Below, in pieces: positions 36,494-49,431 of a stretch of 54,258 bases of DNA. A program made the position numbers and the translations under genes. The stretch spans positions 1 to 54,258 of IMG/VR virus record IMGVR_UViG_3300012000_000021; one strand, 5' to 3'. Within the stretch, counting starts at the first letter, position 1; every line of letters begins with the position of its first letter. The notes under the pieces were generated by a model. It made no database searches. It was not told where the DNA came from and saw only the letters and a program-made list of their open reading frames with translations. Source of the DNA: a virus (Duplodnaviria; Caudoviricetes).

Positions 36494-37153
36494 GTGGAAA
36501 AACAAACTCAAGACCTCACTAAATTTATCAATGCTGGAATAAAAAACTTTCAAGAGGCTAATGAGAAGAAGAGGGCAGCGGCTGCTCCACGCAAGGAACT
36601 AGAGCAAAAACAACGAGAAGAACGTCAACGGGCTGCTTTAATTTGTAAATTAACAAAATTAATCAAAAAATACATACGAGAACAAGAAAAAATACGTTTA
36701 AGTGCTCAACACGGAATAGTAATTGGCGATTACGATCGCTGTCGTAGAAACAATGGAGTGGCTTGTGCGCCTTGCAAGGCTGTTGCTGCTGAGTACGTCC
36801 GTGTCAAATGGGCTAGTGACCCCAAATATAAGGCTAAAGAAAAAGAATACTACAAAAATAACCCTGATAAAAGACATGTAAGCAAAAATAGGAAGCGTGT
36901 AAAGGGCGGAAAACACAGAGCGTACACACGAAATCAGATAATTAAACGAGATGGCTCTGATTGCTACCTATGCGGTGATCCTGTGGACTTCACTGCCCCC
37001 CATATACAAGGGCAACCTGGCTGGGAAACCTATCCACACGTAGAGCATGTAATCCCTTTAGCACTAGGTGGGGACGATACCCTCGAAAACGTCAAGTTAG
37101 CCCATGCAAAATGCAATATTGACAAGGGCCTTAGGCTACTGCCTTCATCCTAA
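36494..37153 (+). CDS. HNH endonuclease
   Basis: RDGSDCYLCG...HVEHVIPLALGGDDTLENVKLAHAKCN, plus an N-terminal HG...Y.RC...C.PC zinc module. TATACT lies 6 nt before the GTG. Confidence 0.9.
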   Translation: MEKQTQDLTKFINAGIKNFQEANEKKRAAAAPRKELEQKQREERQRAALICKLTKLIKKYIREQEKIRLSAQHGIVIGDYDRCRRNNGVACAPCKAVAAEYVRVKWASDPKYKAKEKEYYKNNPDKRHVSKNRKRVKGGKHRAYTRNQIIKRDGSDCYLCGDPVDFTAPHIQGQPGWETYPHVEHVIPLALGGDDTLENVKLAHAKCNIDKGLRLLPSS

Positions 37154-37246
37154 CCTCTCAACCATGGCTGACACTTGGCCGAGTCATGCGTGTAATCGCG
37201 TTAATGGTGGGGTGGTCAATTTATTTTTTACAATGTTTACATCATC

Positions 37247-37523
37247 ACCTGACTACTAATCAGGTGCGATGTTGTTAACACACGCTTTGTTATCAGGTTG
37301 TACCAATGATCTGATGACAATCTTGGTGACGATGCAACGATGCAACTTCGGCTACTGCTATCTGAATCAGGTTGCCTGTGTTCGCACAACCAGCCTGTCA
37401 GTCATCTCTCCCACTTGTTATCAGGTAGCAACTAACTATTCATCATCTGTCATCTCATCTACAGAGTTACTCACCTGTGTTATGTGTATCAGGTAATCGA
37501 TCTCTATTAACAGGTTGTACCAA
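37247..37523. repeat. non-coding array of (AT)CAGGT motifs
   Basis: ATCAGGT at 37259, 37292, 37366, 37420 and 37488; inverted ACCTG at 37247 and 37473; 13-mer CAGGTTGTACCAA at 37294 and 37511. Confidence 0.6.
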
Positions 37524-37616
37524 CTATCAGTACTAGATCACCAACCTAGCAATCAACTGGTGTATCTATCTCTCTCTCATTCTCTCTATCTAATCATCAC
37601 TATCGTTCTTTTACAG

Positions 37617-37641
37617 AAAGGGGGTGCTAACGCCCCCCTTT
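37617..37641. terminator. GC-rich hairpin, probable (bidirectional) terminator
   Basis: AAAGGGGGTG-CTAA-CGCCCCCTTT just downstream of the EndoVII gene. Confidence 0.55.
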
Positions 37642-37670
37642 AAAACCCCCTGTTACTGGAATGGGGCGAA

Positions 37671-38045
37671 CTATTCTTTTTGTTGATCTTGTTCTAAATA
37701 CGCAACGGCTCTTCGCAATACATACGAATCATCTTTTAGCATTCCAATCGCCCTGTTGCAGTTATGACATAACCAGCCACGAACGCGATCTGTATCGTGA
37801 TTGTGATCGATCACTAAATCACGAGTCAGGCTCTCTTCGTGGGCGTTACAAATTGCACATCGATAATCTTGTTTTTCTTTTATCTTCAATAAATCTTGGT
37901 AACTCATTTTGTAAATGCGTGACAATCTTTTCGGTTTCTTTTTGCGGTGTCTGCATGCACGACAAATGTTTCTGACATAGCCATAACCTGTTAATTCAAA
38001 TCGATCTAATGGCTTCTCAGTTTCGCAAGAGTTACAAATCTTCAT
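37671..38045 (-). CDS. endonuclease VII-family (recombination/homing) endonuclease
   Basis: CNSC..K...CRAC, then Q..RCAIC...LVIDHNH.T.RVRGWLCHNCNRAIG.LKD. Confidence 0.9.
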   Translation of the reverse strand: MKICNSCETEKPLDRFELTGYGYVRNICRACRHRKKKPKRLSRIYKMSYQDLLKIKEKQDYRCAICNAHEESLTRDLVIDHNHDTDRVRGWLCHNCNRAIGMLKDDSYVLRRAVAYLEQDQQKE

Positions 38046-38125
38046 CGGACTAATGTAATTGAACTTTCAACTACTCGCTCGGACTTACTTGGCGGAACTA
38101 GCGATCTTGGCAGTTACTTCGGGCT

Positions 38126-38143
38126 ATGTGACCCCGATCACAT
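38126..38143. promoter_or_regulatory. CRP/GlxR-family binding site
   Basis: aTGTGA-CCCCGA-TCACAt is a perfect TGTGA-N6-TCACA in the divergent intergenic region. Confidence 0.6.
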
Positions 38144-38351
38144 CTCACGCTCAAACTGACAAGATCAGCCTCACGCTCAATAGCCCTAATTTGGCTTCTA
38201 TGGGCTCTCTCAGGGCTTTACCCCCAATACTGGAATAAGAACCCTATTCATGGGGCGATCGTGGCTCTGCGCCTGATCTGTGAGGGGCGGTTTTCTGATC
38301 GAAACACGCTTTACCTCTCTTATTAGGGTGTACCAATTTGTCGTACAGGTG

Positions 38352-38360
38352 TGCTTTAAT
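38352..38360 (+). promoter_or_regulatory. possible extended -10 promoter for the large RNA/early operon
   Basis: TG-C-TTTAAT about 6 nt before the first stem-forming segment. Non-canonical hexamer. Confidence 0.35.
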
Positions 38361-38366
38361 TCTCTC

Positions 38367-39045
38367 AGTAGCGCACTCGATGTGTGACCACCGATTTCAG
38401 AATCCTCTAGGGGCAAATTGGTGAATCATTCAAAGTGAAAAAAGCGAATCGTTAAAACTGGTAACAGGCTTTAACAATAATTAAATAATAAATAAACATC
38501 GGTGAACTAACCTGCGAAAGATTTCCCATAGTGGACAGTACTTAGGTGACGATCAATTTATTTATTTATTTTTCATAGTGACTAAGAAACTGCGATTTAT
38601 TTATTCGGAATTAGTTATCACTTAATAACTAGTTACTAAGGCAGACATTGTGCGGTCGGACTATACGATGCAATAACACCGAAATAAATAATCGATTCGA
38701 TCATGCTTGCTACGGCGATGCGAATGTAAAAAAAGTAATTACATTCAAGCGGTATTTCAAGGGCGCGAATTAACGATCACGAAACTGATTGTGAATAGCA
38801 GTAGGGCTTAGGGAATGAAGTGTGGAGATTGTCATTGTAATTAGTGACGGAATGTCTCTACTAGTGAGTGCAGGTGGTAATCAATCCAACCGATTGCACA
38901 TTGAAACTAGTTACAAGAAAAAACAATCAGCACTTCTGCTTATGTGTTAATAGTGATCGATCACCATAAATAGTCAGCGAACTATCTTGGTGATCGATCG
39001 CTATGGATACATAACTCGATGTATTCAATCCACTAGTAACTACAA
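38367..39045 (+). ncRNA. candidate large structured non-coding RNA (~670 nt)
   Basis: Essentially ORF-free and AT-rich, with more than 10 nested or long-range stems. Imperfect pairs in the main stems are G-U on the + strand. Confidence 0.7.
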
Positions 39046-39063
39046 AAGGAAACGGAAAACAAA

Positions 39064-39237
39064 ATGAAACAACAAACATTCATCGATGCAAAGGGCAACA
39101 TCGTTGCTCGCGGTCGTATTACTGAGATCGCTATCGATCTATTACTAAATGACGGAACTCGCTTCTACTCAACTAAATCAGATAACTACACACTCGACTT
39201 CATCAAGAAACTAGACATCGTAAAGGTTGCTAAATAA
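39064..39237 (+). CDS. small early protein
   Basis: MKQQTFIDAKGNIVARGRITEIAIDLLL...KVAK after an AAAGGA RBS. Confidence 0.7.
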   Translation: MKQQTFIDAKGNIVARGRITEIAIDLLLNDGTRFYSTKSDNYTLDFIKKLDIVKVAK

Positions 39238-39534
39238 ATGACAACAACACGAACATCAAACACAAACGCTGGCGATCTAATTGCTAATCGCGTTGCATTC
39301 ACAGGTAACAACCTTTACGGCGTTGTTACTCCTTACGATTCAGTTATCTATACAACAGGGCAATTACCGATTGAGTTTCAAGATCAACTTAAATTAGATC
39401 GACCTGACTTTATTGTGTACTCGTATTCAACACCGATTGCTTGGCATTCTAATAGCGGTTGGTTTATGCCTAATTGCAAATACTCAGTTACAACATCAAA
39501 ACATCAAAACTATGTACGAAGGGCGGTTGCATAA
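39238..39534 (+). CDS. conserved phage early protein
   Basis: IVYSYSTPIAWH...YSVTTSKHQ motif, common in phage early genes. Confidence 0.8.
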   Translation: MTTTRTSNTNAGDLIANRVAFTGNNLYGVVTPYDSVIYTTGQLPIEFQDQLKLDRPDFIVYSYSTPIAWHSNSGWFMPNCKYSVTTSKHQNYVRRAVA

Positions 39535-39535
39535 C

Positions 39536-39817
39536 ATGGGTCGACTACACGCAGAGGAATTAGCAAGCGGTGAGTTTGTTATTGATCTCGAACAACAATT
39601 AGCAATTCACTTCTCTAGTAATTGCTATCCACCAATTCCGCACTTCATGATCGCGGTTGCTCAGGAAGCAATCAAGGCGGTTAACGCCGAGCAATACGAT
39701 CTCGAAATTGAATTACCTGCTGGTGTGCAATTTCGTAACTCAACAACTGTTACTGCGATCAACGCGGTTGACGGATTATTCCTAAATGCGTGGATAGATA
39801 GAGATGAGGATTACTAA
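39536..39817 (+). CDS. hypothetical early protein
   Basis: Start MGRLHAEE at 39536; LAIHFSSNCYPPIP motif. Confidence 0.75.
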   Translation: MGRLHAEELASGEFVIDLEQQLAIHFSSNCYPPIPHFMIAVAQEAIKAVNAEQYDLEIELPAGVQFRNSTTVTAINAVDGLFLNAWIDRDEDY

Positions 39818-39912
39818 ATGACGATCTTTATTATTGCGATCATCGCTGGCGTTATTGGCGTACTGATTGAAAACTTATTTCACGAACTCTCACAAAAAAA
39901 TCGGGGTATCTA

Positions 39913-40179
39913 GTGAGCCAATTCAATCTCGATGAACTCGGATTACTTCACACAATGGTTGAAGTGTCACTCGACAACGCACTAGAGAATGGCGCACCAC
40001 CACAGATCGTTGCGGTGCTTCAATCTGTACTACCAAAGATTGAATCTCGTATTGAAGAAGAGTGCAACATCTTCAATGAGTTTCAAAAACTAACTACACA
40101 ACTCGATGATCTGCACCTTGCATCACAGATCATTGTGCAGAACCCTGATGCAGTTACAACCGACTACCAAACAAACTAA
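39913..40179 (+). CDS. hypothetical early protein
   Basis: 88 aa, helical. Confidence 0.65.
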   Translation: MSQFNLDELGLLHTMVEVSLDNALENGAPPQIVAVLQSVLPKIESRIEEECNIFNEFQKLTTQLDDLHLASQIIVQNPDAVTTDYQTN

Positions 40180-40203
40180 TCACCTAGAGAAAACGGAAAC
40201 CAA

Positions 40204-41085
40204 ATGACTACAGAAAACAAATCCCTATTCATTCCTACATTGGAAAAGACATCGCACTACATACCACGCACCTTTACTGGTGGCGTTACAGAAGATGCCA
40301 TGTACGACTTCGCACTTGCTCACAACATGAACATCTTGATTGAGGGCGATGCTGGAACTGGTAAAACAACTTCGGCACTTGCTTACGCATCAAAGCGACA
40401 CATGAACTTCTTCGCTGTTCCATGTAACTCAGCGATCGACTTCACTCAGTTAATCGGTGGCTTGTTCCCTGATGCTGACGGCAAACTAAAGTGGGTTGAC
40501 GGCGCGATCACAAAGATCGTTCGTGAGGGTGGCTTGCTACTTATCAACGAACTCAACAACGCACCTAAGAACCTGTCTCAGTACCTCATGTCACTACTCG
40601 ATGATCGCCGTTCAATTACCCTCATGTCACATGACAACGAAGTGATTACGGCTCACCCTGATCTTCTAGTGGTTGCAGATCAGAATCCAAACTATCGTGG
40701 AACTCAATTACTAAATGAGGCGTGGAAAGATCGCTTCGAAATTAAATTGCGCTTCGATTACGACAACACCATTGAGAAGAAGATCATCACATCTTCATCT
40801 CTACTGGAACTCGCAAACGGAATGCGATCAACATCTCGCAGAGACGATCACGCATCAGATCGTGGAACTATCTTCGAGACACCTGTATCACCACGCATTC
40901 TAAAAACATTCGAGAAGTTAGCAAAGGGCTTGTCATTCGATTTCGCTTGCGATGTATTCGTAAACAATTTCACAGATGAAGAGCGACCTGCGGTCAAGAT
41001 GCTTCTAGAAGGTACTTCATACAACATTCGAGAAGAACTCGGACTCGATGTTGATGCGATCACAACTGAACACGATCAGGCTTAA
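40204..41085 (+). CDS. MoxR/CbbQ/CobS-family AAA+ ATPase
   Basis: GDAGTGKTT, WVDG.I, LLINELN (Walker B variant), NPNYRGTQLLNEAWKDRF and SPR sensor II. Confidence 0.9.
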   Translation: MTTENKSLFIPTLEKTSHYIPRTFTGGVTEDAMYDFALAHNMNILIEGDAGTGKTTSALAYASKRHMNFFAVPCNSAIDFTQLIGGLFPDADGKLKWVDGAITKIVREGGLLLINELNNAPKNLSQYLMSLLDDRRSITLMSHDNEVITAHPDLLVVADQNPNYRGTQLLNEAWKDRFEIKLRFDYDNTIEKKIITSSSLLELANGMRSTSRRDDHASDRGTIFETPVSPRILKTFEKLAKGLSFDFACDVFVNNFTDEERPAVKMLLEGTSYNIREELGLDVDAITTEHDQA

Positions 41086-41087
41086 CA

Positions 41088-43088
41088 ATGTGTGCCTGTG
41101 GTAAATGTCCGTCATGCAAACAATGGGGAGTAACAATGAACTATGACGAAGCAATCGAAGAGTGGGAACTCGACATTCTTGGTGAGACTCGTGAGTCACT
41201 ACGATCACAAGCGATCAAGGCAGAAGAGAAGAAACAACGACTAGAGCGATTCACACAATTCTTCGGTCGTGTTAATTCTGCATTCACTTTCCGCAAAGTG
41301 ATTGTGACTGTTGAGAACTCTCCTATGGAAGCACCTGCTTGGTCAGGTGCATCAACTGTCACTTTCAACTCTCGTGTCATTGGTGATCTCAATGATGCTA
41401 AATCAATCGCTGGTATCAAGGGGCTTGATCTTCACGAGATCAGTCACATTCTTTATACATCTCGTGAAGGATCAGAAATCTTTGATTATGTACGAGATAA
41501 CAATTACTTCATGGCATACAACGCACTTGAAGATCAGAGAATCGAAACTCTCTTTACATCAAAGTATCCGTCAACGATCGACTGGTTTACCGCCACGATC
41601 TTGATTCACTTCGTTGATAACAAAGAGGCTTTCACTAACTCTTATCCGCTATTGCGTGGTCGTAGATACCTGCCTGTTGATCTAAGAGCGCAATCTCGTA
41701 ACGCCTATCCTGAACAAGATCAGATCGATGAAATCTGTGCAGTAGTCGATGAGTACCGCACTCTTCTATTCCCTGCTGATACTGAAAAAGGAAAGGAACT
41801 TATTGCGCGATTTAATGAGTTACTTCCAAAAGGTAATGGCAACGGCTCAGGTAATGGCGAAGGTGGGTCTGTGCGACCTGCTGAGGCTGGTGAAGAGGGC
41901 GATGTAGTCATTCGTATCAATGACCCATTCGGTCATGGCAAGCGACCTTCTGAGGGCTTGGAATCGTCTGCTAATTCACGACCTGTTCCACCAAAGAAAC
42001 AAGAGAAAGATCGTGATCGCTCACAACAACTCGACAAAGAAGATGATGCAGAACTGGCTGAGCAACTGAAATCAAAACCTGTTATCGATGTTGACATCAA
42101 CGACATTGATTTTGATTTTGATTTCGATGATGCAGATTCAGATTCAGATCAGGATTCAGATCAAGATTCTGATTCACATCAACCTTCTGATTCTGCTGGT
42201 TCTTCTGCTGGCGAATTAATCGACACATTGATTGGTGATCTATTAGAAAACATTCTTGATTCTAATGAAACCGAAATCAATGACATCTTGCGACAGATTG
42301 GTGGTTTACCTTCTCTTACTACCAACAATTCAAAAGAGCCTGAGTTAGATTCATTTCATGATCTTGCCCCTGATGCAAATACATTTCAAGCATCGTTGTC
42401 ATTCGGTCGTGAGTTAGAGCGATTGAGATCATCGTTCGACCCTGCATGGGATAGATACGAGTCACAAGGTCGCTTGTCTGCACATCGCTACTTGCGTGGT
42501 GATGAACTCGATACTGTATTCGATCAATGGAATGAAGGTCGTGAAGATGCGACTGAGATCGAATGCGTGATCTTGTTAGACAACTCAGGTTCAATGTCAG
42601 GACACAAAGCCTCTAGTGCGTACAAAGCCATGTACGCGATTAAGAAGGCACTTGATCGTGTTAACGCAAATACAACTGTTATCACTTTCAATGATCGTGC
42701 TAACACCCTGTATCGTGCAACTGATCGCGTTGGTAACACAATTCGTGATGCTGGTACTGGTGGTGGAACAAATGCTGACGGCGCAATTAAGTACGCAACT
42801 AAACTGCTTGCCGAAACTGAGAAGCCTGTTCGTATCTTCTTCGCAATTACTGACGGAGAATGGTCGGGCGATCAGAAAGACAATCACGAAACAATCAAGC
42901 GCATGGCTCGTGCTGGTGTGCTTACTGCATTCGCGTACATTCCTGAAAGTACTGAACCTGTAGAACTAAATGCACAGAAGTCTCACTATTGCGAGATCGC
43001 TTCTGTTGTTCGTAATCCATTCGATCTTGTTTACATGGCGAAATCAATCGTGAAGTACGCGATCTCTCGCCGTCTCGTAAGCAACTAA
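41088..43088 (+). CDS. CobT-like partner: HExxH metallopeptidase-like N-domain, acidic linker and VWA domain
   Basis: LHEISH...NALEDQRIE; MIDAS DNSGSM, GGT and ITDG. Alternative start at 41136 after GGGGAG. Confidence 0.88.
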   Translation: MCACGKCPSCKQWGVTMNYDEAIEEWELDILGETRESLRSQAIKAEEKKQRLERFTQFFGRVNSAFTFRKVIVTVENSPMEAPAWSGASTVTFNSRVIGDLNDAKSIAGIKGLDLHEISHILYTSREGSEIFDYVRDNNYFMAYNALEDQRIETLFTSKYPSTIDWFTATILIHFVDNKEAFTNSYPLLRGRRYLPVDLRAQSRNAYPEQDQIDEICAVVDEYRTLLFPADTEKGKELIARFNELLPKGNGNGSGNGEGGSVRPAEAGEEGDVVIRINDPFGHGKRPSEGLESSANSRPVPPKKQEKDRDRSQQLDKEDDAELAEQLKSKPVIDVDINDIDFDFDFDDADSDSDQDSDQDSDSHQPSDSAGSSAGELIDTLIGDLLENILDSNETEINDILRQIGGLPSLTTNNSKEPELDSFHDLAPDANTFQASLSFGRELERLRSSFDPAWDRYESQGRLSAHRYLRGDELDTVFDQWNEGREDATEIECVILLDNSGSMSGHKASSAYKAMYAIKKALDRVNANTTVITFNDRANTLYRATDRVGNTIRDAGTGGGTNADGAIKYATKLLAETEKPVRIFFAITDGEWSGDQKDNHETIKRMARAGVLTAFAYIPESTEPVELNAQKSHYCEIASVVRNPFDLVYMAKSIVKYAISRRLVSN

Positions 43089-43090
43089 CT

Positions 43091-43186
43091 GTCACTCTCT
43101 AGGTGACTACATGAGATGCGCTATTCGTGGAAGGCTGGCGCAGATCATAAGTGAGTGGGGCTTGTTTTTGGCTTGCCCCACTCACT
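43091..43186 (+). other. intergenic triple hairpin
   Basis: GTCAC/GTGAC, TGCGC/GCGCA and a 12-bp AGTGAGTGGGGC/GCCCCACTCACT stem. Confidence 0.55.
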
Positions 43187-43219
43187 ACCCAAACAATTAC
43201 AACTAAGGAGAATAAAGTA

Positions 43220-43837
43220 ATGAAATCAGCAGACCTACAAATCGGTATTAAGTACGGCGTTATTCCTTCATGGGATTACTCATCACAAGATAAGAAAGAC
43301 CCTGCAAAGGTGCAACGCAGAGCCGTTGCTAACGCAGAGTTAGTCTCACTAGAGAAGTACGAATACAAGGTGTATCGATCAGATAATCCTGATGATGCAC
43401 AATTTACTTCTGCACCAAAGGGAAGTAGATCAGTCGGTTACATCGTCAAATCTTCTGACTGGGCTGGTAACACACAGGGTGACATCTACTGGATAGCGAG
43501 AGCGCAGGACATCGTTGCTGAGTATGCAACTCTTGAAACTCGTTGGACTAAAGAAGAAGCCGAAGAGAAGGCTCGTGAGGCTCAATGGAAGGCAGAACGC
43601 GAAGCCAAAGAACAACAAGAGAAGATTGAACAGGCAAACGCTCAACGATCTATTGATGCGGTCAAAGAATCTCTTCGATCAATCATCGGTTCTCGTGCAG
43701 ACAAACTTGATTTCGAGATTCGTAATCGCCGTCAAGAAAACGGAGATTACAAACTAAGCGGTGCTTGCACTATCGATGTACGCACTCTTCAATCACTAAT
43801 CGAGAAGGTTCTCGAAGCAAGAGACATGGTGGCATAA
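43220..43837 (+). CDS. hypothetical early protein
   Basis: Start ATG 43220 (MKSADLQIG) after AAGGAG. Confidence 0.75.
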   Translation: MKSADLQIGIKYGVIPSWDYSSQDKKDPAKVQRRAVANAELVSLEKYEYKVYRSDNPDDAQFTSAPKGSRSVGYIVKSSDWAGNTQGDIYWIARAQDIVAEYATLETRWTKEEAEEKAREAQWKAEREAKEQQEKIEQANAQRSIDAVKESLRSIIGSRADKLDFEIRNRRQENGDYKLSGACTIDVRTLQSLIEKVLEARDMVA

Positions 43838-44542
43838 ATGAGTTACTTCTTAGATCGATTCGTAGCGATTCAAGATAAGTACTACAAGAACTATCAAGGC
43901 AATACGCATCACTCAACATGGTTGCGTAACAAGCGGTTCGATCACATGATTGAACTAAAACAATTACCGAATACCTATCAAGAAATTGAATACAAGGGGC
44001 ATTCAATCATTGTGCAGGGCATTCACTATCAATGGTGCGACATTTTCGATGTAAATGGGAATCACTTCTCTTCTGTACCACGAACATCAGAGATTAAATC
44101 TCGTGGTGATCTGCAATTCAGTACGATCTTTCTTGCATGGGCTTGGCGTATTGACGGACAACACACAGATAAGCCATTGAACTGGAATAGTGAACACGCA
44201 GTTATCTGTGGCAGTCATTCAACAGACAAGATCGAGAAAACGATCAAACTCGCAAAGAAGCGCATCGATCTTGAAGCAAAGATCGTTGCGGTTCAAGATC
44301 AACTGATCGCTATTGCTGGTGAGCGCATGGTGTACTCAACAAACATGAGTGCATACAACCCATACAACGCCGTAATTAACGATCAGGTGTTTATTCAGGG
44401 GTTTGGTCGGTTGCGTAAGGGCATCATCGTTGAGACAACTGGATCACGATTCGTTGTTGCTTATGTAACTCCCTCTAATCATCATGATCTGAAATACAAG
44501 ACACTTCCACTTAGTCGCTTATACATAAAGGAGAATGCGTGA
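43838..44542 (+). CDS. hypothetical early protein
   Basis: 234 aa with an SH3-like C-terminus. Confidence 0.75.
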   Translation: MSYFLDRFVAIQDKYYKNYQGNTHHSTWLRNKRFDHMIELKQLPNTYQEIEYKGHSIIVQGIHYQWCDIFDVNGNHFSSVPRTSEIKSRGDLQFSTIFLAWAWRIDGQHTDKPLNWNSEHAVICGSHSTDKIEKTIKLAKKRIDLEAKIVAVQDQLIAIAGERMVYSTNMSAYNPYNAVINDQVFIQGFGRLRKGIIVETTGSRFVVAYVTPSNHHDLKYKTLPLSRLYIKENA

Positions 44543-45015
44543 CAACTAAAAGCCGAAAGTCTGCTAAAACTATTGAGCGAGAAAACTTTCTTGCTATTGG
44601 TATTAAGGCGTGCAATCGGTGTGACAACCTGTACGAACTAAGTAACTTTCGATCTGCAAAAACTAAATCGGGAGTAGTTTCGTATTGCATTCCTTGTGAA
44701 GATGCGTACAAAGTAGAGTGGCACTTGAAGCGCAGGATTCAGATCAAGGAATGGATTTACAATCACCTAAAATCTAATCCTTGCGTTGATTGTGGCGAGA
44801 AAGATGTACTCGCACTCGACTTCGACCATGTAAGAGGCGCACGAAAGCGTTACAACATCGCTCATGCGTTCATGCTAAGTAACATGACGATCAAGCGATT
44901 ACAAACTGAGATCGCAAAGTGCGATGTCCGTTGCGGTAAGTGCCACAGAATCCGTACACACATGGCTAGTAAGTCATGGAAATACCGAATGGCTATTGAG
45001 AAAGGAGATGCTTAA
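44539..45015 (+). CDS. HNH endonuclease-like protein
   Basis: CVDCGEKD..ALDFDHV.G...EIAKCDVRCGKCHRIRT. Confidence 0.85.
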   Translation: MTTKSRKSAKTIERENFLAIGIKACNRCDNLYELSNFRSAKTKSGVVSYCIPCEDAYKVEWHLKRRIQIKEWIYNHLKSNPCVDCGEKDVLALDFDHVRGARKRYNIAHAFMLSNMTIKRLQTEIAKCDVRCGKCHRIRTHMASKSWKYRMAIEKGDA

Positions 45016-45182
45016 TTGTTAACAGTAAGAGGCTGGATTGTTCTTGTAATTATTCCTGCATTGATCTTGGTATCGCTATTTACTTATGTAACTCGTGATG
45101 TCTGCTATGTGGGCGAAGGCGGTAACTGGTTGGGCTATGGCTCATGCACAAAGATGATCGATGAAGTGACAGGAGAAAACAA

Positions 45183-45380
45183 ATGATTGATTCAGAACTT
45201 GAAACTCTACTTGCTGATGTTGTTCGATCTAAATGGGGCGATAGAGGTATTGAGTATCTTGTTGGTGCGATCTCTAGCATCACAACTGCTGACCAACTAA
45301 CTGCACTAATCAATGCAAATCTTGATTCTCGTGTAGTTAGAACTTCACCTGACGGCTCACTATTCTTGGGAGATAACTAA
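45183..45380 (+). CDS. hypothetical early protein
   Basis: AGGAG RBS, 65 aa. Confidence 0.65.
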   Translation: MIDSELETLLADVVRSKWGDRGIEYLVGAISSITTADQLTALINANLDSRVVRTSPDGSLFLGDN

Positions 45381-45616
45381 TGATCGCAACTGCAAAAGAA
45401 GCAATAGAGATGATCGAGAAAATGTATGCAACAGACATGAGTGAACAACTAGTAATTACTTGGTGGGATTCAACTGATTTCCAAGATCGTGATCTCGATA
45501 AGGCATTCAATGTCTGTGAAGATGCACTTGATGTCTGTATCGGACACATCAGCGACACAATCGCTGACTTCGTTCCTGCTTTAAGTGAAGGAGATTCAGA
45601 TGCCAATAACGCTTAG
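45380..45616 (+). CDS. hypothetical early protein
   Basis: TAATG coupling, 78 aa. Confidence 0.65.
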   Translation: MIATAKEAIEMIEKMYATDMSEQLVITWWDSTDFQDRDLDKAFNVCEDALDVCIGHISDTIADFVPALSEGDSDANNA

Positions 45617-45928
45617 ACAAGCAAAACTGCTAGATCAAAAGTATCGTCACATTCGAGATTGTTTTGAGTGTGGCGATCAACACGATGTCAATGAGATGTA
45701 TCCAAAAGACGGATACTTAATCTGTGAACCTTGTTCGCAGGGAAGATAGGAGATAACCAATGGGATACGCACAGATCGTTCGTAGGGTAGAAGCCCACGA
45801 ACTAACTAATTGTGATGATTGCGGGAATAACGAACTTACTTCATCAGGTAAATACTTCGAAGAACTAGGTAGTCAAAAGATACTGTGGTTCTGCTTTAAC
45901 TGCATTCATAATCCAACACAGTAACTTT

Positions 45929-46186
45929 ATCGAGTAGGGGTCAACGCAGGGTTAAACGACAGGGTTAATTCATTTCCCTATCTCCTTACCTGCTAAGGGC
46001 GATCATGATCGGCTTCTATGATTGCCGTAGTCGTACCTGCCCCTACTCGATTTCACTATTGATAGAGATCGTCAACACCTAGCAGACTACGGCAGACTGA
46101 AAAGGTGTTATGAAAATCTTGCAAGATCGTTGATCGATTTCAGACCAACGCACAACATCGTTCTACTTCTTGACGATCTCTATCAA
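45929..46186 (+). ncRNA. candidate two-domain structured RNA
   Basis: A 12-bp stem (45929-45940/46040-46051) and a 17-bp perfect stem (46059-46075/46170-46186) each enclose a multibranch interior. Confidence 0.6.
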
Positions 46187-46216
46187 CTATTTAATTAACC
46201 TAGAGAGGATTACAAC

Positions 46217-46390
46217 ATGGATACACCACACCCATTCACACTAGAAGAAGTAAATGCAATCCTTGTTGCACGATTCAATGGCGAATCGTTGCAGAGCGTT
46301 GCTGATCGATTTAACACAAATCGTGTACTGATTAGAAGAATAGAAAGTAAATACATGAACCGATTCAAAGTCGGACACACTTACAATTAA
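46217..46390 (+). CDS. small HTH protein
   Basis: FTLEEVNAILVARFNGESLQSVADRFNTNRVLIRRI; GAGGA RBS. Confidence 0.65.
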   Translation: MDTPHPFTLEEVNAILVARFNGESLQSVADRFNTNRVLIRRIESKYMNRFKVGHTYN

Positions 46391-46486
46391 GGAGAAACTA
46401 AATGACATCAATTCCACAAACTAAATGTAATGACTGCTTGGAATGGGTTGAGTACGAAACTGTCCACGAATGCAAAGGAGAAATAA

Positions 46487-46828
46487 ATGAGTGAACTATC
46501 ATCACACCAAACTGATCTGATTAAGTCGATCACGATCGCTAACGAGTTTCTAAAGATCGTTCGCGGATTCAAAGTAGATTCTGATCGCAAAGACAGTCTG
46601 CCTCAGGAGATCAAGGAGTACCTAGCCAATGAACACCTGAACTCAATCATGGAAGATCAAGAGATCGAACCTGAGATGTTGATTTGGGGATTCCTGCACA
46701 TGATCGAGATTCTCTTGAAGTATGCAGAGTTAGACCCTGAGGACTTAACGAGTGTCATGGATTCGTTTATGAAGTATGTGATCGAAAACCCTGACCAATA
46801 CAGAGATCGGAGTAACGATGAAGATTGA
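46487..46828 (+). CDS. hypothetical early protein
   Basis: 113 aa, AAGGAG RBS. Confidence 0.7.
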   Translation: MSELSSHQTDLIKSITIANEFLKIVRGFKVDSDRKDSLPQEIKEYLANEHLNSIMEDQEIEPEMLIWGFLHMIEILLKYAELDPEDLTSVMDSFMKYVIENPDQYRDRSNDED

Positions 46829-47093
46829 GATCATCAATGCACCATGTCAGTCAGCAGGTGTTGACCCTGAGTTATTCTTTCCTGACCCGACAGAGTACGA
46901 AAAGATTCAGCGAGCCAAAGCAGTATGCAATCAATGTCCTGAGATCACAAAGAATAAATGTCTCTCATTCGCACTAGACAATGGTGTGCAGTATGGAATC
47001 TTCGGCGGTCTAACAGATCACGACAGAGCCCTACTACGCCGTAGAGAGAATCGAAAATACAAGCAGTATGTATCAGTAGTGGGGGAGTATTAA
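46818..47093 (+). CDS. whiB: WhiB-family transcription factor
   Basis: C...DPELFFP...AKAVCNQCP...CLSFAL...GIFGGLT..R: four Cys plus the G(I/V)(W/F)GG turn. Confidence 0.93.
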   Translation: MKIEIINAPCQSAGVDPELFFPDPTEYEKIQRAKAVCNQCPEITKNKCLSFALDNGVQYGIFGGLTDHDRALLRRRENRKYKQYVSVVGEY

Positions 47094-47218
47094 TTATGTA
47101 CACAAAGAATCAGGTAGTAATCGAAGTCAATGGTGGCGTTGCAGAAGTAACTCGTTGCCCTAATGACATCGAAGTAATCATCATCGATTACGACAACGAG
47201 ATCAATGGAGATAACTAA

Positions 47219-47428
47219 ATGATGAATCCAAATGACATAGTGCTATTTACTCGTGAAGAAGCAAATCAATTAGTGAGGAGAGTGCTTACTGATGATGAAT
47301 GGCTAAAGATCAGAGAGTGGATTACTTCTGACGATAATCTGTGGGAAGTGATCGATGAATGTATTCAGAACACGATTAGTGAGGTGATTATCGATGAAGA
47401 TCAACAAGAAACTGGTGAATCGAATTGA
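47219..47428 (+). CDS. hypothetical early protein
   Basis: 69 aa, GGAG RBS. Confidence 0.65.
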   Translation: MMNPNDIVLFTREEANQLVRRVLTDDEWLKIREWITSDDNLWEVIDECIQNTISEVIIDEDQQETGESN

Positions 47429-47616
47429 AGGATTGGCTCACTACTACCGACATCGCACAACAAACAGGGCTAAAGATCGACACGATCTATACCTATCGAA
47501 AGCGCAACACCCTTCCCGAACCCGATCACATGATCGGCAATCGACCACTATGGAAGCAAGAAACAATCGATAAGTGGAACTCTTATCGAATAACACAAAT
47601 AGAAACGGAGAAATAA
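47425..47616 (+). CDS. AlpA/excisionase-like winged HTH
   Basis: WLTTTDIAQQTGLKIDTIYTYRKRNTLPEPD.MIGNRPLW. Confidence 0.8.
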   Translation: MKDWLTTTDIAQQTGLKIDTIYTYRKRNTLPEPDHMIGNRPLWKQETIDKWNSYRITQIETEK

Positions 47617-47844
47617 ATGGTTGCAAATGTAATCAGTAGTCAAACCTCAGCAACAGATCATGTTATTGAGTTTCCAATGAACGGAAATGTTTACACCGCC
47701 AAAGTATTTATTGGTGAGTGGGGCGTTGATGTTGATTGGTTTATTGGTGAGGACTTTATTGCGATCGATGATCGCTGGAAGGTTCTGCCAACTGATCTCT
47801 ACAATCTCGATGATTTGGATTGGGAAGAGATTCTCTATCCATGA
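47617..47844 (+). CDS. hypothetical early protein
   Basis: 75 aa, GGAG RBS. Confidence 0.65.
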   Translation: MVANVISSQTSATDHVIEFPMNGNVYTAKVFIGEWGVDVDWFIGEDFIAIDDRWKVLPTDLYNLDDLDWEEILYP

Positions 47845-47996
47845 GTACCTACAAAGTAACTTTTGTATGGACACGATCAATCGAAGTCGAATGCGATTCC
47901 GAAGATCAAGCGAATCAACTCGGTGAACTATGGCTATCCGAAGCAGTACCGCAGATCGCTCACGACACCGAATGGGATAGTGAGATCGTCAACTAA
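47841..47996 (+). CDS. small early protein
   Basis: MSTYKVTFVWTRSIEVECDSEDQA...EIVN; ATGA overlap. Confidence 0.65.
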   Translation: MSTYKVTFVWTRSIEVECDSEDQANQLGELWLSEAVPQIAHDTEWDSEIVN

Positions 47997-48072
47997 CTCT
48001 TAGCCCTGATCTGGGGCGATCTGAGAGTTACTTCAAGCGCACATAAGCAGATTCCCTAAGCCCACAGTCACT

Positions 48073-48111
48073 ATTGCCCCTAGCCCCTGATCGGGCTAGG
48101 GGCTATTTTTT
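48073..48111 (+). terminator. intrinsic terminator ending the early operon
   Basis: GCCCCTAGCCC-CTGATC-GGGCTAGGGGC followed by TATTTTTT. Confidence 0.85.
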
Positions 48112-48168: not shown

Positions 48169-49431
48169 ATGGCTTATGTCGTAAAGCGTGGGGATAGGTT
48201 TACAGGCTATTACCGAAAGGGCGGTAAACGCCTCTCAGCAGGTACATGGGGCTCGACTATCGATGCCATGTACCACGCCTCAAAAGCAGAGGCATCGGGT
48301 GGCAGCGAGCCTTCTAGGGCTGTATTTACCCTATCGACCTACATCGATTCATGGCTTCCCACCGCCGATCTCATGCCGATCACTCGCAAGGGCTATCGAT
48401 CAGTCATTGACCGCTATGTGATTCCAACTCTTGGAGATCGCAAAGTAACTTCGATCGATACCCGTACCATTCAAAAGTTACTTCAAGCCCTGAGATCAGA
48501 AGGAGTCGGTTCAGCCACCCTCAATCAGATCAAGGCATCACTAGGGTCTGCCTTCTCCCAGTTAGTCGATACAGGAGAATTAACTCAGAACCCTACTCAT
48601 GGGATTCGTATTAAGGCGAAGTATTCGGACATCTCAAATGTTGTAGAACCCGAAGAGTTTAAAGCGATTATTCAGCATCTACCGACCGAAGGGGCGCAGT
48701 TATTCGCCCGATTCTTAGTCGCATCAGGTTGCCGATTCGGGGAAGCAACCGAGATCAGGGTCAAGGACATCAACCTGAGGACAGGGGAAGTCTATGTCCA
48801 AAGGCGAGTCAGCGATCTAGGGTCAAGCCATACCAGCAGGTTTCTAGTCGTAGAAGCCACAAAGTCGGGTCATAAGCGAAGCCTTATGTTAAGCAAAGCC
48901 CTACTACAAGAGATTCAGGGTTATGTCATAGCAAAAGCCCTATCAAAAGATGACCTGTTGTTTCCAAGAACGATCATCTTAACAACAGGTAAACTAGAGG
49001 CTTCTCGTGGAGAAATGTCTAAGCGACCATTCGCCAAAGACGGAAAACTGTTCCAGCATGGAACTCTGTACGCCTATACACATGGGCGTTGCCGATGCGA
49101 GGCTTGTAGAGAGTCGGTGCGAAAGCACAGGCAAAAGACAAAGCCATACCAAAAGCAACAGAGGTTCATCGACCATACGAGTCACCTACCACGAGATGTA
49201 TGGAGAACTACATGGAACAAGGCAATAGCCAAGTCAGGCATCGGTTGGAGTCCTAGAACCCATGATCTAAGGCACGCTAACGCTACTCAACTTCTAAAAA
49301 GCGGAGTAGATGTGCATGAGGTCAAGGAACGCTTAGGGCATCAGTCGATAAAGACGACAGAGCGATACCTACATCGCCTTCGTCACAACCAGTCAAAGGC
49401 ATCAGAAAGTGTCAATGACTTTTTGGAGTGA
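48169..49431 (+). CDS. int: tyrosine recombinase/integrase with an internal zinc-binding insert
   Basis: SGCRFGE (R), TKSG (K), HDLRH, LGHQS and ERY; insert HGTLYAYTHGRCRCEAC. Confidence 0.92.
   Translation: MAYVVKRGDRFTGYYRKGGKRLSAGTWGSTIDAMYHASKAEASGGSEPSRAVFTLSTYIDSWLPTADLMPITRKGYRSVIDRYVIPTLGDRKVTSIDTRTIQKLLQALRSEGVGSATLNQIKASLGSAFSQLVDTGELTQNPTHGIRIKAKYSDISNVVEPEEFKAIIQHLPTEGAQLFARFLVASGCRFGEATEIRVKDINLRTGEVYVQRRVSDLGSSHTSRFLVVEATKSGHKRSLMLSKALLQEIQGYVIAKALSKDDLLFPRTIILTTGKLEASRGEMSKRPFAKDGKLFQHGTLYAYTHGRCRCEACRESVRKHRQKTKPYQKQQRFIDHTSHLPRDVWRTTWNKAIAKSGIGWSPRTHDLRHANATQLLKSGVDVHEVKERLGHQSIKTTERYLHRLRHNQSKASESVNDFLE

Follow-up and report, generated by a model that had tools for sequence, protein, structure and literature searches.

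ROOL and GOLLD, together with OLE, HEARO and raiA, are the closest described RNAs in kind to the one reported here, and ROOL, GOLLD and OLE are the subject of a cryo-electron microscopy paper (PMC12286853). The element in question is a structured RNA of the + strand (38367-39027) within a stretch of 54,258 bases, hereafter the window, that forms the IMG/VR virus record IMGVR_UViG_3300012000_000021 (completeness estimate 54%). Like those RNAs, it spans several hundred nucleotides (nt), combines many covarying helices with strongly conserved unpaired nt, is borne by a phage and has no assigned function. Unlike ROOL and GOLLD, it heads an operon directly before a ribosome site instead of being a free-standing gene, and its probable host group is the Actinobacteria.

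Two further kinds of phage RNA occupy a comparable position. The put RNA of phage HK022 and the nut RNA of phage lambda act in cis in antitermination and lie just after the promoter and before the first gene of the early operon, with a small protein gene following; they measure tens of nt, whereas the RNA described here measures 400-770 nt, matches no Rfam model and is followed by no clear internal terminators. The mycobacteriophages L5, D29 and StarStuff produce, straight from their early promoter Pleft, a non-coding RNA of ~500 nt that is abundant, stable and partly processed, with ~90% termination before the early genes, and in L5 this RNA ranks first in abundance among the phage transcripts, is toxic to the host and has no known function, according to the parts of the published account used here (PMC5712189). 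Our locus shares with it an open reading frame (ORF)-free stretch at the operon head ahead of early genes and a probable actinophage origin, its promoter being a sequence candidate. Note that the right end of L5 (50500-52297) gave no match to R1, our covariance model (CM) of the 3′ core (E<=10, filters off), none by nhmmer and only chance matches of 9-14 nt by blastn. Expression was demonstrated for the L5 RNA and is predicted for ours, whereas the covariation-supported fold presented below has no equivalent in those parts of the L5 account (PMC5712189).

In a structured-RNA screen of IMG/VR, Fremin and colleagues (2023) reported 8,495 candidates with an average size of 67 nt, many of which lie directly upstream of phage genes (PMC10690425). 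The parts of that account compared here describe no large RNA of this kind, and single hairpins of our RNA may be among the candidates. Our literature searches found no description of this RNA.

Folding, covariation and strand

An earlier note on this DNA had proposed that the interval 38367-39045 is a nearly ORF-free stretch covered almost throughout by the stems of a large + strand RNA. Indeed, no ORF longer than 50 amino acids (aa) overlaps 38367-39045, all the complementary segments that the note had named lie where it had placed them, and the + strand reaches a minimum free energy of -181.9 kcal/mol compared to -149.5±6.8 for 20 dinucleotide shuffles, none of which folds as well (z -4.74). 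The - strand of the same stretch gives a z of -3.13, and the flanking non-coding stretches fold less well, with z -1.26 for 38046-38366 and z -2.81, moderately better than shuffles, for 37154-37670.

Covariation in homologues, which the earlier note had put forward as a check, was strongly positive. It was assessed in A1, an alignment of 13 full-length members folded with RNAalifold, in which double changes were recounted independently against shuffled and slid controls. Among its 102 pairs, arranged in 19 helices, 58 hold a kept double change, compared to 29.9±3.1 in shuffled alignments (0/500 shuffles reach 58) and to only 5-11 when the partner is moved by 1-3 columns, and 96.6% of the cells are paired versus 83.1±0.6 in shuffles. 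The 3′ core was examined across both clades of the family in A5, which comprises 19 distinct members and in which the helices Pa, Pc and Pb were taken from anchor-based tables: 91.4% of the cells are paired (68.9±1.5 in shuffles), and the covariation score of 0.598 compares with 0.167 for shuffled and at most 0.10 for slid controls. For the helices P0, P2 and P3 of divergent members, anchor-based helix extraction replaced the combination of MAFFT and RNAalifold, which had misaligned stems of unequal length in the divergent compact 5′ domains and hence returned 3 pairs only.

The strand proposed for the RNA is favoured by the alignment, whose folding energy is -80.7 kcal/mol on the + strand versus -50.5 on the - strand. 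In addition, 32 of the 102 pairs hold at least one G-U on the + strand, several of these G-U being invariant, and the predicted pairs comprise 137 G-U cells versus 15 A-C cells, a count that is biased since the fold was predicted on the + strand. Altogether, the element is a large ornate structured RNA in the descriptive sense, i.e., several hundred nt with many helices of compensatory change and no coding potential, and we regard the existence of a + strand RNA family as almost certain.

Architecture of the RNA

The RNA comprises a 5′ domain, an expansion segment, a 3′ core and two terminal hairpins, all given below in + strand coordinates. The 5′ domain (38367-38593) is built from a terminal helix P0 around the hairpin P1, a GNRA-capped hairpin, and a long-range helix P2 around P3, and it ends with the single-stranded block ATAGTGAC (38575-38582), nearly invariant in A1, A2 and A3. 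In P0 (38369-38447), 38369-72 and 38374-76 pair with 38444-47 and with GTG 38435-37, leaving a conserved A6 bulge and enclosing P1. All 7 pairs form in 13 of the 26 members scanned, through six different tetramer pairs, and 6 of 7 form in the other 13; in L011 (members are designated here by L and a number) CAC/GTG is replaced by CTC/GAG. The group of the window has 6/7 pairs, with one mismatch and an alternative partner, and P0 is weaker in the window itself. Note that a possible 5′-3′ closing helix predicted by RNAalifold (AGCGCA 38370-75 with TGTGTT 38943-48) shows zero double changes and would compete with P0.

P1 (38389-38423) presents a 19-nt loop motif (38397-38415) and a 4-bp tip hairpin, with compensatory change in 8 of its 9 stem pairs, and the loop motif is unchanged in the 8 of 8 protein-found homologues that hold the region in a MAFFT alignment, where compensatory changes could be recognised by eye. 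The GNRA-capped hairpin (38451-38475; loop GTAA, GCAA in relatives) belongs to the AT-rich clade only. It carries two double compensatory changes in L004, and RNA-library contigs of another study hold the same four changes (38454 with 38472, 38459 with 38466), pairing being kept. P2 (38487-38566) is formed by 38487-96/38557-66 followed by ATCG 38498-501/CGAT 38550-53, and encloses a symmetric GTGA/GTGA loop and the hairpin P3 (38506-38545). Both P2 and P3 were recovered in 18 of the 19 members scanned (for L065, the script chose a wrong anchor), with stem sequences unrelated among lineages (AAGTA/TACTT, GATAC/GTATC, GTCAGG/CCTGAT; 19 bp in L066) and with covarying closing pairs of P3 (CTAA/TTAG, CCAA/TTGG, GCAA/TTGC). 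In the GC-rich members L081, L249 and L258, the 19-nt P1 loop motif is repeated in full in P3, and P3 of other members shows a related AATCC-tetraloop-GGGA tip, which suggests that both hairpins bind one partner.

Downstream of the 5′ domain, junction helices (38582-38811; CTAA/TTAG 38582-85/38808-11 and CTGC/GCAG 38590-93/38798-801) close the variable expansion segment (38594-38797), which consists of an arm (38593-38694) and hairpins at 38722-46 and 38773-92. In L006 another sequence takes the place of this segment, in L010, L011 and L065 it is shorter, and the GC-rich clade lacks it; the spacing between the P1 loop and the 3′ core ranges from 190 to 539 nt in 21 complete members. The 3′ core (38817-38936) begins with two nested outer helices (38817-23/38930-36 and 38827-32/38923-28), followed by Pa (38836-45/38906-15) and by a three-way junction, the bases of which are invariant, of Pc (38851-55/38898-902), the hairpin Pd (38856-68) and Pb (38873-77/38886-91), the latter with a bulged base and the 8-nt loop TAATCAAT. 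The outer helix GAAGTG/CACTTC is formed by unrelated sequences in different lineages, as shown by anchor-based extraction, and was retained over a small hairpin 38929-32/38937-40 predicted by RNAalifold.

The long hairpin (38951-39003) counts 16 + 5 bp in the window and 22-27 bp across the family, and it is a candidate processing or attenuation site. Compensatory change was found in 19 of its 21 pairs, and its stem is wholly different in sequence in L009, L010 and L066, its length being kept. A short hairpin (39004-39027; 7 pairs, 2 with compensatory change) is the last before the ribosome site. The intrinsic terminator that would end a free-standing RNA gene was not found, since the signature of a G+C-rich hairpin with a T-run is absent from the 3′ end.

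Most of the individual stems named in the earlier note gained covariation support, namely the stem 38389-97/38415-23, the GNRA hairpin 38451-75, the long hairpin 38940-39014, the stem TTGTAATTAGT/ACTAGTTACAA, and the A-rich/T-rich arm, now refined to 38487-96/38557-66; the hairpin 38722-29/38739-46 is also present. The arm 38593-38608/38679-38694 exists, although its pairing requires two 1-nt bulges and its covariation is slight. Of the four long-range pairs, two were supported and two were not. The pair GAAGTG/CACTTC covaries, but the pseudoknot attributed to it is not supported because it nests outside GATTGT/ACAATC: indeed, ACAATC 38923-28 covaries with GATTGT 38827-32, and CTGATTGT at 38785 is not paired with ACAATCAG at 38923, as 38785-92 covaries with 38773-80 in a local hairpin. 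Finally, the changes observed between TAGTTACTA at 38630 and TAGTAACTA at 39034 are uncompensated, and this pair is unsupported.

Family members and database searches

Rfam 15 gave 0 matches at gathering score in the whole window, and at E<=10 only 4 chance-level matches were obtained in 37900-39300 (12.9-22.9 bits versus gathering scores of 40-100). The same search returned only two tRNAs in nine homologous loci and nothing relevant in one GC-rich member whose 5′ end is missing at the contig end. The RNA had been expected to belong to a known class or to a new one: the second part holds, whereas ROOL and GOLLD, as well as OLE, HEARO and raiA, were ruled out by the lack of any match to the Rfam 15 models, nothing meaningful appearing at E<=10. 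A group I/II intron was also rejected, with no Rfam match and with flanks that consist of a - strand Endo VII gene and an intact 57-aa ORF, so that no gene is interrupted. By these comparisons, the RNA is a family absent from Rfam, and we class this family as a new one among the large ornate RNAs carried by phages.

Members were collected in several ways. An IMG/VR search with the 98-aa protein of the downstream operon gave 55 loci, in 9 of which (8 distinct) the non-coding stretch was aligned by blastn with 68-96% identity. The 19-nt P1 loop block was found in 29 IMG/VR stretches, 22 of them true relatives by nhmmer and the remaining 7 (<=14.6 bits) apparent chance matches inside genes. The same motif occurred in 119 stretches of 185,579 prokaryote genomes, none of which extended past the motif by nhmmer, so no prophage or cellular copies are evident at that sensitivity. 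In metagenome contigs, at least 120 stretches carry it, and among the matches listed 17 are supported by nhmmer (E<=0.001), 7 of them new. A nucleotide search of the cultured-phage collection with 38000-39300 gave no match. Counting the window, the family thus comprises at least 28 distinct 5′ sequences, in addition to L004, which a contig end truncates, and member length ranges from ~400 nt in the GC-rich clade to ~770 nt in the AT-rich clade. CM R1 found nothing in 46 more distant loci encoding the 98-aa protein (L012-L057), nor in L068, L079 and L280.

Wherever a member has the 3′ core and sufficient sequence downstream, its RNA precedes the same operon, whose proteins are ~50-97% identical; by tblastn among the 27 other family loci, homologues of the 57-aa and 98-aa proteins (p57 and p98) were found in 22 and 19, respectively. 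The first downstream gene is not constant: an extra ORF displaces it in L003 and L008, the genes of L058 and L066 begin with another ORF, and L072 and L063 have no recognisable p57. The extra ORF lies between the RNA and the 57-aa gene (about 3440-3711 in L003; 3469-3711 in L008, 80 aa), and in L003 the ~40-nt region of the ribosome site (window 39037-39076) flanks the inserted ORF on both sides, as if a gene had been inserted there by recombination. Three further loci, L068, L079 and L280, share the 5′ domain only, with 45.8-49.4 bits against a hidden Markov model (HMM) built without these three, versus at most 22 bits for chance carriers of the motif. Ten proteins of the window operon were searched for, and none is encoded by L068 or L280; the sequence of L079 continues for only 557 nt downstream. 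In L068, the genes after the 5′ domain form a different early operon, which encodes small unknowns, a DNA-binding protein and a RecT-like protein.

Genome setting and candidate promoter

The left part of the window holds - strand genes for tail fibres, the portal, the large terminase and an endolysin, and a + strand gene block extends from 39064 to a terminator at 48076-48103, forming an operon of ~9.7 kb without a recognised structural gene. As had been anticipated, the RNA directly precedes the ribosome site and this rightward non-structural operon: a purine-rich ribosome site (39045-55, +) is followed by the first ORF (39064-39237, +; ATG at 39064), which encodes a 57-aa protein with an AlphaFold2 mean predicted local distance difference test (pLDDT) score of 86.4. 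The other products include the 98-aa protein (phrog_32689), an AAA_5 (MoxR/CobS-like) ATPase, a VWA protein, an HNH endonuclease and a WhiB-like transcription factor, the gene of which (46818-47093) lies near the operon end. The strong intrinsic terminator (11-bp stem, T-run) closes the operon and is followed by an integrase-like gene (48169-49431).

The nearest cultured terminases are those of Streptomyces phage BRock and its relatives, with 53% identity, and WhiB-like factors are exclusive to Actinobacteriota and serve as an actinophage indicator, as stated in the part of the source consulted for this point (PMC10202952). Because of the WhiB-like gene and the terminase relatives, the host is probably a freshwater actinobacterium and the phage an actinophage, in agreement with the freshwater setting previously suggested.

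The interval that separates the two gene blocks consists of an HNH gene (36494-37153, +), an Endo VII gene (37671-38045, -) and non-coding stretches that include ~1 kb of gene-free sequence (38046-39063). The two endonuclease genes, which adjoin the RNA between the diverging blocks, look like mobile insertions because several homologous loci lack them. Immediately upstream of the RNA, the motif TG-n-TTTAAT (38352-38360, +) is a candidate extended -10 box; it is a reading of the sequence whose position is kept in the alignment, the consensus promoter scan did not call it, and it would put the transcript start near 38367. A 27-nt direct repeat with the core AGGTTGTACCAA occurs in three copies of 70-81% identity (37285-37311, 37502-37528 and, on the + strand, 38315-38341) in the non-coding stretches between the gene blocks; the third copy, which is conserved in homologues, lies ~25 nt upstream of the candidate box in the window, and the repeat may be a phage promoter or operator motif. 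Farther upstream, CTCACGCTCAA is found twice in 38144-38180, 26 nt apart (two or three copies in homologues), and may be a binding site for a regulator.

A second ORF-poor stretch (37154-37670) could hold another RNA or regulatory DNA, and 37131-37427 is kept at 71-82% in six related loci. Within it, 37480-37513, next to the second copy of the 27-nt repeat, resembles 38940-38973 (the 5′ arm of the long hairpin) with 71% in direct orientation, and the complementarity of this segment to 38945-65 reaches 90% over 21 nt. A G+C-rich hairpin with A-runs and T-runs on its flanks (37616-37640), situated after the HNH gene and before the 3′ end of the Endo VII gene, resembles a two-way terminator and is absent from the consensus scan list.

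RNA-library contigs

Part of the stretch occurs in 20 of the 24 listed public runs (18 recorded as RNA, from 14 studies, mostly freshwater), and in only one of them does the share of the sampled words reach one half. Contigs of four runs (X1, X2, X4 and X5), which come from two studies, were aligned. It should be noted that assembled contigs give neither strand, ends, level nor timing, so that the discrete ~0.65-kb transcript and the transcription first after infection put forward in the earlier note stay proposals, and that gaps in their cover (e.g., 38206-38339 in X1) carry no meaning. In X2, X4 and X5, short contigs of a related strain lie over 38420-38593 and 38653-38835; the main contig of X1 is considered with the proposed function below.

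Proposed function and alternatives

Our favoured proposal, to which we give a probability of roughly 45%, is that the RNA would be functional in its own right and released from the early transcript. As an autonomous RNA, it would be transcribed first, from the upstream promoter, as a compact body with its 5′ end sealed by P0, and the conserved 22-27-bp hairpin would be the place where it is parted from the downstream mRNA or attenuated, either by double-strand-specific cleavage or by partial termination; sites for double-strand-specific RNases separate early RNAs in other phages. The strictly conserved unpaired nt (P1 loop, GTGA/GTGA loop, Pb loop and core junctions) would act on a conserved cellular or phage component during host takeover, and that contact would be made by the portable 5′ domain, which other phages carry in front of unrelated early genes. 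An autonomous RNA is favoured because of its size, the number of helices, the invariant unpaired bases, the sealed 5′ end, the modular domains and the varying next gene. The invariance of loop and junction nt between clades whose operon proteins are ~50% identical, a long-hairpin stem of kept length and replaced sequence, and the occurrence of the 5′ domain by itself before another early operon in L068, were also counted in its favour.

Several points weigh against an autonomous RNA. The L5 RNA that serves as precedent is not homologous. Neither 3′ hairpin is followed by a T-run, and between 38367 and 39400 the consensus scan detected nothing like a terminator on the + strand. A 665-nt contig of X1 (38549-39213) bridges the RNA, through the long hairpin, into the first ORF and gives no hint of a discrete RNA; co-transcription would account for it, as would DNA carry-over, the latter being possible because neighbouring genes on both strands are covered too. 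The invariance of the P1 loop is partly circular, since the motif itself served to find 19 of the 27 further members, which hence provide no evidence of its invariance. The 57-aa protein gives no functional clue: it matches nothing in Pfam, in PHROG or in the cultured-phage collection, and the PDB holds no neighbour of its model at E<=0.001 (best 0.5).

Because the terminator signature is lacking and the X1 contig runs through the hairpin, a purely cis-acting leader on the operon mRNA is nearly as likely, and it would work by processive antitermination of the put/nut kind, as a shield against 5′-end-dependent nucleases or as a translation gate. Such a leader would also account for a position between the promoter-like region and the first ribosome site that is kept in every full-length member, for the absence of any terminator called between the RNA and the ORF, and for the sealing of the presumed 5′ end by P0. 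However, 400-770 nt and ~15 helices go far beyond the known sizes of antitermination or stabiliser elements, the first gene is inconstant, and the 5′ domain recurs before unrelated genes. In addition, the + strand of 39000-48075 holds only two weak terminator-like sites (42084 and 44576), and hence shows no clear need for read-through; the total for the region was 13 sites versus 8.5±2.8 in shuffles, in a scan confined to Rho-independent sites. The compact three-way core with its invariant junction bases, and the two homing-type endonuclease genes (HNH and Endo VII) just upstream, may call to mind a catalytic RNA, self-cleaving, enzymatic or mobile in the manner of an intron, with the conserved junction nt as active site. 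Yet this is quite improbable, given that no ribozyme or intron model of Rfam matches even at E<=10, that no gene is interrupted, and that several homologous loci retain the RNA without having the endonuclease genes.

Two readings without a functional RNA fare worse. The inverted repeats could act as DNA, be it as a replication origin, as a packaging site or as a cluster of operators, considering that the element lies near the divergence point of the gene blocks, is AT-rich in part (GC 0.33 at 38450-38749) and beats shuffles on the - strand as well. A DNA-level element is very improbable in view of the many conserved + strand G-U pairs, the far better folding of the alignment on the + strand, the long-range nested helices and bulges that are kept, and the AT-rich part that is missing from the GC-rich clade. 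As for a decayed or overlapping protein-coding gene, long ORFs do exist in one frame in L003 (2747-3217, 156 aa) and L006 (2464-2850, 128 aa), and this frame has fewer stops than the other two across the close group. However, an open frame of 146 codons (listed as the 156-aa ORF) spans the 5′ half in only 2 of the 13 members (L003 and L085), the other 11 having 3-17 stops in the same frame and the window copy being shifted by 1- and 2-nt indels. Variable columns are spread evenly over the codon positions (54/144, 47/146 and 49/145), with no third-position excess, and the open frames have no Pfam match below E 0.1 and, by eye, no ribosome site before their only ATG, which leaves a coding gene hardly credible.

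Implications

Bacteria and phages have so far yielded few non-coding RNAs that are both large and highly structured, nearly all of them without a function, and each new one has brought a new architecture. In the present family, the variation among members (two clades, 400-770 nt, a swappable expansion segment and a separable 5′ domain) suffices to design minimal constructs for structural work, and the position of the RNA at the head of a non-structural operon is fixed and interpretable. Its probable carriers are phages of abundant freshwater Actinobacteria. A bolder proposal, which we consider unlikely but not negligible, is that this would be a new large RNA machine of actinobacterial phages, in which the portable 5′ module (P0-P3, including the invariant P1 loop) would dock on a universal host component and lineage-specific 3′ modules would add a second activity, such as catalysis, quaternary assembly of the ROOL/GOLLD kind, or sequestration of polymerase, ribosome or nuclease. 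If this were true, the RNA itself would be the first effector of host takeover. Overall, the RNA provides the early RNA of L5 and D29, abundant and unexplained, with a structured counterpart, and the production of a large RNA before anything else may therefore be a strategy that recurs among actinophages.

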